64,000 nt of DNA, taken from Escherichia phage vB_EcoM_112. Of this stretch, positions 30,699 through 31,274 are shown in pieces. Below the pieces are notes generated by a model. The model worked only from the letters and a program-made list of their open reading frames with translations, searched no databases and was not told the DNA's origin. Each line of letters starts with the position of its first letter. Positions within the stretch are counted from its first letter, which is position 1. A program made the position numbers and the translations under genes. The DNA lies in the sequence record NC_024125.2. One strand, 5' to 3'.

Positions 30699-30912
30699 AT
30701 TTGACTTCCTCACCAGTGCATAAATCATATTCAACTAAACGAATAGGTTCATGAATGCCATATCCCTGAACAGAAATTTCTGTCGTGGGATAAATTCCAT
30801 CAATATCGCCCATATTCCACGCTTCATTAAATTGCTGTTCACCTGAATTACTAAACCATTCGGCGAAAGCATTTAACACATCTTCAGAGCCTTCAATAAT
30901 TATCTTTGCCAT
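30691..30912 (-). CDS. hypothetical small protein
   Basis: 73-aa acidic ORF, ATGA-coupled to the GrcA-like gene. Confidence 0.4.
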   Translation of the reverse strand: MAKIIIEGSEDVLNAFAEWFSNSGEQQFNEAWNMGDIDGIYPTTEISVQGYGIHEPIRLVEYDLCTGEEVKYD

Positions 30913-31274
30913 TACAAACTCTCGGTAAAGGTACGAGCGATAACGTCGCGCTGCTGTTCCGGAGTCAGAGAGTTAAAGCGAACTGCATAACCGGATACAC
31001 GGATGGTCAGCTGCGGATATTTTTCCGGATGCTTAACTGCATCTTCCAGAGTTTCACGACGCAGAACGTTAACGTTCAGGTGTTGACCACCTTCAATTTT
31101 AACTGTAGGTTGTGGCTCAATTTCAATTTCACGGGCATGCAAACCATAGAAAATTTCTGGGTCTACAAAAGAGTCCTCTTTAAAGGTTTTAGAGACAATA
31201 ATTCGTGCTTGAATACCATCTTCAAAATAAATAGTACCTTTATGTGTGCCTTCAAGAATTTGATATGCTTTCAT
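30912..31274 (-). CDS. autonomous glycyl-radical cofactor (GrcA/YfiD-like)
   Basis: C-terminus ...[55 protein letters not shown] carries the RVSGY glycyl-radical motif. Confidence 0.8.

Follow-up and report, generated by a model that had tools for sequence, protein, structure and literature searches.

The phage gene vs.6 encodes a small, standalone glycyl-radical protein, and in Escherichia phage vB_EcoM_112 (NC_024125.2) it is a mosaic: an old, AT-rich phage 5' half is joined to recent Escherichia coli grcA sequence over codons 60-117. We analyze a 64,000-nucleotide stretch of this genome, hereafter the window, in which vs.6 occupies 30912..31274 on the minus strand. The transfer ran from host to phage, and the structured domain of the protein has been overwritten by the allele of the current host at least twice, in independent events. 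We consider it very probable that vs.6 is a phage GrcA that repairs pyruvate formate-lyase (PFL), and that host grcA overwrote part of it by recombination, in Klebsiella phages as well. The gene and its biochemical role are already known and annotated; the evolutionary pattern of the host tract is apparently undescribed.

The vs.6 gene and its host-derived tract

An open reading frame (ORF) of 120 codons, from ATG to TAA, fills 30912..31274 exactly. A Shine-Dalgarno sequence, GAGG (31280..31283, minus strand), read directly from the DNA, begins 9 nt 5' of the ATG. The ORF is the known T-even gene vs.6 (Y06I), which encodes a 13.6-kDa standalone glycyl-radical domain protein homologous to GrcA. 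This coding sequence is assigned on the ORF, Pfam, identity to phages T2 and T4, and PDB entry 6OWR. Pfam reports Gly_radical as the sole domain (residues 61-101, E = 2.8e-18). The top PDB match is E. coli YfiD/GrcA (6OWR, E = 8.6e-42, residues 22-120), followed by PflB 697-759, which aligns over 63 residues without a gap (E = 5e-26). The RVSGY loop spans residues 92-96; its glycine, G95 (codon at 30990..30992, minus strand), aligns with PflB G734 and is the predicted glycyl-radical site.

The gene is conserved among T4-like coliphages: its DNA is 100% identical in T2 and 97-99% identical in many others, and roughly 1500 phage records match it. The T4 RefSeq record NC_000866 names vs.6 "autonomous glycyl radical cofactor GrcA," and the annotation of phage Mizar, which ties y06J to vs.7 and GrcA to vs.6, is consistent with Y06I being vs.6. 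T4 Vs.6 is the orthologue, found in the same gene order (vs.7 - vs.6 - vs.5 - vs.4/acb2 - vs.3 - regB); it has 120 residues and differs at a single one (R73 in the window phage, H73 in T4). The T4 DNA is 100% identical over the 5' half, 171/172 over the host-derived tract, and 99% over the gene. There is essentially no difference between the two copies, and the window phage is another Tequatrovirus, with an identity of at most 96.7% to any record across 16 kb.

At the protein level, the gene falls into two parts. All 60 residues from 61 to 120 are identical to E. coli GrcA 68-127, whereas the N-terminal 60 residues share only 18/60 (about 30%) with it. E. coli GrcA/YfiD (6OWR, TIGR04365, InterPro IPR011140) is likewise standalone, measures about 14 kDa, and has RVSGY in common with Vs.6. 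The phage N-terminal part is 7 residues shorter, and homology is recognizable from residue 22, where the HMMER alignment to YfiD begins. The genomic settings differ: vs.6 lies in an early-gene cluster of a virulent phage, whereas E. coli grcA adjoins ung (one record inspected). The C-terminal glycyl-radical domain of PflB (residues 693-759) is the same domain as in vs.6, although PflB itself is a 759-residue enzyme. The sequence-only reading of the window had called the ORF a phage GrcA with about 60 C-terminal residues, RVSGY included, essentially identical to the enterobacterial protein and with a divergent N-terminal half; it had also mentioned a T4 homologue, Y06I, and suggested recent exchange with the host. 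All of this is borne out, the T4 homologue through Wagner et al. 2001 as cited in PMC8683613.

That reading had further proposed a nucleotide alignment of the 3' half against E. coli grcA, and the alignment is unequivocal. We ran blastn with the vs.6 gene against 5426 complete E. coli genomes: gene nt 179-363 match chromosomal grcA at 97.8% identity in 5426/5426 genomes, and the 5' half has no match in any of them. Pairwise alignment narrows the match to an unbroken 172/172 identity over gene nt 179-350 (30925..31096, minus strand). This host-derived tract encodes residues 60-117, nearly the whole structured domain, and corresponds to YfiD 67-124, inside the structured domain that PMC8683613 places at 61-127. 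Identity over the tract is at least 99% in 5156/5426 E. coli genomes and exactly 100% in several. Base composition changes at the same point. The phage-type 5' half (gene nt 1-178, residues 1-60; 31097..31274, minus strand) has a GC content of 0.34, close to the 0.348 of the whole window, and a GC content at third codon positions (GC3) of 0.19; the values jump at the boundary to 0.49 and 0.43 in the tract.

We compared the tract with grcA from 80 host species, obtained in one GTDB species-genome scan. The closest hosts after E. coli are Escherichia sp. (169/171), then Citrobacter amalonaticus and Trabulsiella (157/171), with the rest lower. The best host outside Escherichia thus reaches about 92% over the tract, though many genera encode the same protein there, and 13/81 host species share the exact C-terminal protein sequence of E. 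coli GrcA. Over the tract, E. coli grcA itself shares 87.8% of its bases with K. pneumoniae and 83.1% with Salmonella. Because hosts with the same protein are much less similar in DNA, the donor is E. coli or a very close relative. Neither pflB nor tdcE qualifies as donor, since their DNA identity is only about 80% and 77.5%. Nor can misassembly or contamination account for the tract, which recurs in about 640 independent records of Tequatrovirus and Mosigvirus, T2, T4, and the RB phages among them.

Host grcA itself has no such break. E. coli and K. pneumoniae agree at 84.4% of positions in its 5' part (synonymous divergence, dS, 0.81) and at 87.8% in the tract (dS 0.62). Because host grcA diverges evenly along its length, without a discontinuity, the direction of transfer is from host to phage. 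The GC content of the tract follows each host, at 0.49 in the E. coli phages and 0.56 in the Klebsiella phages, with 5' halves at 0.34-0.38. In a K. aerogenes NCTC10006 record labelled plasmid 2 (303-686), host grcA is frameshifted by one extra base. Two PLSDB "plasmid" records, CP125156 (5.37 Mb) and LR134122, evidently consist of chromosomal sequence under a wrong label.

Both ends of the patch coincide with recognizable features. The left edge is the start of the EGGQH motif, at the onset of host-phage similarity and six residues inside the YfiD structured domain. The right boundary zone consists of the last four codons and the stop, ACC GAG AGT TTG TAA (30912..30924, minus strand), with four synonymous differences from the E. 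coli counterpart, ACT GAA AGC CTG. Here vs.6 meets vs.5 (30691..30912, minus strand; 73 residues), an ORF named after vs.5 in T4 and Mosigvirus annotations and apparently translationally coupled to vs.6. The vs.5 ATG overlaps the vs.6 stop as TAATG, and GAGAG (GAGG in Klebsiella phages) lies about 8 nt 5' of that ATG, within the last vs.6 codons; in the Mizar record, the corresponding position is annotated as a ribosome-binding site. Related phages carry the E. coli base at three of the four end sites, in differing combinations: the Thr third base in T4 and in phage loci L005 and L006, the Ser third base in L006, and the Leu first base in L005. At the fourth, the GAA/GAG site of the Glu codon, T4 looks E. 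coli-like in one of two comparisons that read slightly differently there. Such an end-site mosaic could stem from conversions that ended at different points or from a later tuning of the translation signals of vs.5. The patch stops on the left where host-phage similarity ends and on the right just before the vs.5 ribosome-binding site and start codon, and we infer that the vs.5 start signals constrain its 3' end.

Recurrence across phage genera and older homologues

Klebsiella phages of Jiaodavirus (KPV15, 15882-1, Merci, Roth01, and Shinkou) have a patch that begins and ends where that of the T-even vs.6 does. Their tract matches K. pneumoniae grcA at 96.6% and the E. coli gene at 86.9%; phage by phage, this amounts to 165-166/172 and 146-151/172. 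The two hosts differ at 21 tract sites; of these, 19-21 have the E. coli base in Tequatrovirus and Mosigvirus, and 18-20 the K. pneumoniae base in Jiaodavirus. In a neighbor-joining tree of the tract, Escherichia clusters with Tequatrovirus and Mosigvirus at 96% bootstrap and K. pneumoniae with Jiaodavirus at 97%; the phages are monophyletic in 0/500 bootstrap replicates. The donors resolved to species are two only, E. coli and K. pneumoniae. We also considered phage locus L003, with a tract 98.8% identical to the O157:H7-type allele versus 98.3%, as a separate conversion event and rejected it, a one-site difference being too weak. As a separate matter, vs.6 of KPV15 (1501-1862) is one base short in a T run, so that its reading frame shifts after codon 42; its 98%-identical relatives are intact, and the frameshift is either a sequencing error or a recent pseudogene.

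Comparison among the coliphages orders the parts of the locus by age. Mosigvirus JK42, mar007P3, Av-05, and phiE142, together with Mizar, which we grouped with Mosigvirus by similarity, carry the E. coli tract at 168-172/172. Measured against the window phage, dS is 1.0-3.9 in the neighbors vs.7, vs.5, vs.4, and regB; 0.40 (JK42) to 0.56 (Mizar) in the vs.6 5' half; and 0.02-0.12 in the tract. Because dS falls from flanks to 5' half to tract, the tract is younger than the surrounding gene and the gene younger than its neighborhood. The lower divergence of the Tequatrovirus and Mosigvirus 5' halves relative to their flanks suggests that the whole vs.6 gene has also moved between phage genera.

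Phage homologues drawn from IMG/VR and GenBank include copies that lack the patch. The Enterobacter phage CC31/PG7 group and the RB16/RB43-like and KP15-like phages have a common N-terminal type (MKAYQILEG...GTIY.EDG..AR.IVSK), with a Gly-radical domain fused to it in one and the same register. These T4-like unpatched groups have the N-terminal type and genome neighborhood of vs.6, and no sampled host comes closer to their 3' halves than 77-84% identity. When T5-like homologues are included, the range is 72-84% to any sampled host grcA, and the domain organization is again that of vs.6. Nucleotide divergence of the kind that the sequence-only reading had expected of an old phage gene is absent from the window copy and present in the CC31 group and the RB16/RB43-like and T5-like phages. 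GC content over the tract region is 0.40-0.42 in the CC31 group and 0.48-0.49 in the RB16/RB43- and KP15-like phages, the latter similar to the E. coli tract. In a triplet test with a T2-type query, CC31 as phage relative, and E. coli as host, 56 informative sites in the 5' part side with CC31 and 9 with E. coli; in the tract, 0 side with CC31 and 31 with E. coli (Fisher p = 2e-17). The simplest reading of the event is part-replacement of a pre-existing phage homologue, a gene-conversion patch, rather than capture of a new gene.

As a gene, vs.6 brings no novelty, since its product is the textbook spare-part protein of T4 (vs.6/Y06I). In the literature searched on Y06I, YfiD, vs.6, and GrcA, neither the nucleotide identity nor the parallel patches are described, and vs.6 figures only as a conserved ORF with a Gly_radical match or through the 2001 biochemistry; an earlier remark in Wagner 2001, Miller 2003, or Bowman 2019 is possible. 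What is new is the K. pneumoniae patch of Jiaodavirus with the same boundaries, the E. coli patch in Mosigvirus despite saturated neighbors, and the unpatched CC31 copies. The closest precedent is the cyanophage gene psbA (Sullivan et al. 2006, PMC1484495), which recombines within the gene between host and phage: a metabolic gene of T4-like phages in which segments exchanged with the host copy give mosaic genes and conflicting phylogenies. The present case differs in gene, host group, and habitat. Its exchanged segment coincides with one whole structural domain, does not differ by a letter from the current host species, and recurs between the same two boundaries in the phages of two genera of host.

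Inside a functional gene, a phage that is strictly virulent and breaks down host DNA still keeps a 172-nt piece of the host chromosome without a single letter changed, and sister phage genera carry the corresponding piece from their own host. This provides a clean, dated enteric-phage example of single-domain host-to-phage gene conversion, which has so far been discussed mostly for cyanophage photosynthesis genes. If the reading is true, the tract would record the recent natural host of a virulent phage and may serve as a marker. It also offers an experimental handle on how often E. coli DNA restores the sequence.

Origin of the patch and function of the protein

Several observations weigh against reading vs.6 as a PFL-repairing phage GrcA that was partly overwritten by host grcA. 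Against the NCBIfam equivalog model for GrcA, TIGR04365, the protein matches profile positions 25-126 and scores 153.3 bits, short of the curated cut-off of 170, because its N-terminal half has diverged. The longest exact run shared by the CC31 copy and E. coli grcA is 12 nt, compared with runs of 26-31 nt between host alleles; since an unpatched copy offers no run longer than 12 nt, ordinary homologous recombination would be an inefficient route to a first conversion. Between the Jiaodavirus tract and the common K. pneumoniae allele there remain 6-8 differences, and one scan of 25 metagenome contigs with the K. pneumoniae-type junction pattern yielded no closer donor: 23/25 carry the reference K. 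pneumoniae allele or a one-base variant, still 6-8 differences from the phage tracts. The Klebsiella-phage event is either older or from an unsampled donor. Four tract differences in Mosigvirus JK42 are matched in no E. coli genome (best 97.7%), so conversion has not been continuous in every lineage. In addition, the detailed comparison was limited to some 80 host species, a single K. pneumoniae chromosome, and roughly 25 copies from phages, and the searchable literature yielded no in-vivo phenotype for a vs.6 mutant.

The short shared runs bear directly on how the tract entered. With exact runs of at most 12 nt between unpatched copies and E. coli grcA, homology-driven entry looks hard, and the left junction of the patch is sharp; both points speak for a one-step illegitimate capture, in which a phage N-terminal ORF was fused to a host grcA 3' fragment and no older homologue was converted. 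We nevertheless think such a capture very unlikely. The CC31-group, RB16/RB43-like, and KP15-like phages have the N-terminal type in register with a diverged Gly-radical domain, which implies that the full-length gene predates the patch, and GrcA residues 28-66 have a homologous counterpart in the phage N-terminal half. Moreover, the patches from two hosts share both boundaries, as expected of homology limits and not of independent illegitimate joins. Under part-replacement, the first entry of a host tract would be rare; once an enterobacterial-type tract is present, the allele of the next host would overwrite it far more easily, within the same limits.

T4 infection shuts off host gene expression. 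Vs.6 would be synthesized by the phage after infection, and the host radical S-adenosylmethionine activase PflA would then place a radical on Gly95. The structured C-terminal domain would dock into host PFL whose own radical domain has been cut by O2 at G734. Acetyl-CoA and formate output would be restored, and with it fermentative ATP, in a cell unable to renew GrcA or PflB. The likely benefit of vs.6 is that host PFL would be kept active in micro-oxic fermenting cells after host shut-off; we infer that the gene could in this way sustain anaerobic metabolism during infection.

The biochemical activity of the T4 protein comes from the literature. Wagner et al. 2001 (pmid 11444864), as cited in PMC8683613, reported that E. 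coli YfiD and T4 Y06I restore O2-cleaved PFL after PFL activase installs the radical. PMC8683613 also describes YfiD residues 1-60 as disordered and as helping binding and activation, YfiD 61-127 as sharing the fold of PFL 693-759, and PflB G734 as both the radical site and the site of O2 cleavage.

Other clients have been conceivable. Following the Pfam match in PMC1524935, Vs.6 might serve the phage ribonucleotide reductase NrdD as a spare radical domain, or it might act as a decoy for the host activase; we regard this as very improbable. NrdD (11462..13279, minus strand) and NrdG (10172..10663, minus strand; TIGR02491, 1.6e-58) are both encoded in the window, as the sequence-only reading had stated, about 18 kb from vs.6. 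NrdD carries a Gly_radical domain too, and the oxygen-damage argument of PMC8683613 would extend to it. In Nolan et al. 2006 (PMC1524935), vs.6 is treated only as a conserved ORF with a Gly_radical match, and a nucleotide-metabolism role is proposed. However, BLASTP of the Vs.6 protein against phage NrdD detected no similarity (E = 5.5), and we reject the spare part for NrdD on that ground. The domain is identical to that of host GrcA and aligns ungapped with PflB, PFL rescue by T4 Y06I is reported in PMC8683613, and a domain copied from a host PFL repair protein is not expected to fit NrdD.

Two further explanations retain almost no probability. The first holds that vs.6 is an old phage gene whose C-terminal identity reflects purifying selection only, with no recent DNA exchange. 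The glycyl-radical domain is indeed extremely constrained: the RB16/RB43-like and KP15-like copies have no nonsynonymous divergence (dN = 0) from their hosts with dS saturated, and the exact E. coli protein sequence recurs among host species, as noted above. Yet selection on the protein cannot account for agreement at about 45 synonymous sites. Against E. coli the tract scores 172/172, while hosts with the identical protein differ at 8-17% of bases, GC3 steps from 0.19 to 0.43 at the tract boundary, and the Klebsiella phages match K. pneumoniae synonymous states instead; the synonymous-site data have already refuted this explanation. The second, that E. coli and K. pneumoniae took the 3' half of grcA from T4-like phages, has only the directionless identity in its favor and can be dismissed: host-host identity is continuous (84-88% in the 5' part versus 83-92% in the tract, with the E. 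coli/K. pneumoniae dS values given above), tract GC is that of each host (49%, 56%) and not the 35% of the phage background, and the tract sits at the chromosomal grcA locus in 5426/5426 E. coli genomes, next to ung in the record inspected.

Host matching and gene neighborhood

We lean, with some reserve, toward a model in which the structured domain of T-even phage GrcA evolves in concert with the host gene, tracking the current host. The host match may be selected, as the domain must dock into host PflB and be recognized by host PflA, or it may be a by-product of exchange. The pattern argues that compatibility of the radical domain with host PflA and PflB matters to the phage, and this compatibility argument supports a real PFL-repair role during infection in the low-oxygen gut.

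Phages that match their host in protein sequence are also found outside the patched groups. In RB16/RB43-like copies, the domain has dN = 0 against E. coli GrcA at a dS of at least 1.6 (IMG/VR loci L014-L020, KP15-like copies included, dS 1.6 to >3). KP15-like copies have dN = 0 against K. pneumoniae GrcA, including two distinctive residues (LLDAVEH vs LEDAVKH), L and E where the E. coli type has E77 and K81. The GrcA domain of these RB16/RB43- and KP15-like phages (gene at 1501-1863) is thus a host-matching protein without recent DNA exchange. Further T4-like contigs of about 150 kb (L021-L026 and L033), several from human-associated Human Microbiome Project metagenomes, encode a 130-residue GrcA homologue (gene at 1501-1893). 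In T4-like contigs from human oral metagenomes, the GrcA C-terminus has the Haemophilus-type residues NPDKYPQ and VITRTF, and the best DNA matches of the Human Microbiome Project contig gene, at 79-84%, are grcA of Haemophilus and Aggregatibacter. The dN = 0 copies and the Haemophilus-type residues would fit selection for a host match; they involve few residues and are suggestive only.

Isolation host and tract do not always agree. Tequatrovirus isolates on Yersinia (fPS-65 and phiD1) carry the E. coli-type tract at 99-100%, and the same T-even gene type is found in Salmonella phage SG1 (96.7%, whole gene) and Citrobacter phage CrRp10 (97.2%, 5' half). These isolates point to E. coli as a recent natural host, or to the lack of re-conversion on more distant hosts.

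The neighbors of vs.6 mark the region as the T-even early-gene cluster. Upstream lies lysozyme e (32856..33350), and between it and vs.6 are an internal-protein-like ORF followed by vs.8-like and vs.7-like ORFs. Beyond vs.5 is vs.4/acb2 (30432..30734, minus strand), an Acb2/Tad1-domain sponge (Pfam PF24729, 1.4e-19) directed against the cyclic oligonucleotide-based antiphage signaling system (CBASS); this gene, two downstream of vs.6, differs strongly from its Mosigvirus copy (dS 3.9). The regB gene (29633..30094) and vs.1 (29080..29625) follow. A promoter and terminator scan of 30400..32900 returned 12 promoter-like sites versus 10.2 expected. Farther away, an ORF at 10639..11469, between NrdG and NrdD, has NUMOD3 and weak GIY-YIG SegE-like matches; these matches suggest a homing endonuclease that has inserted between the genes for reductase and activase.

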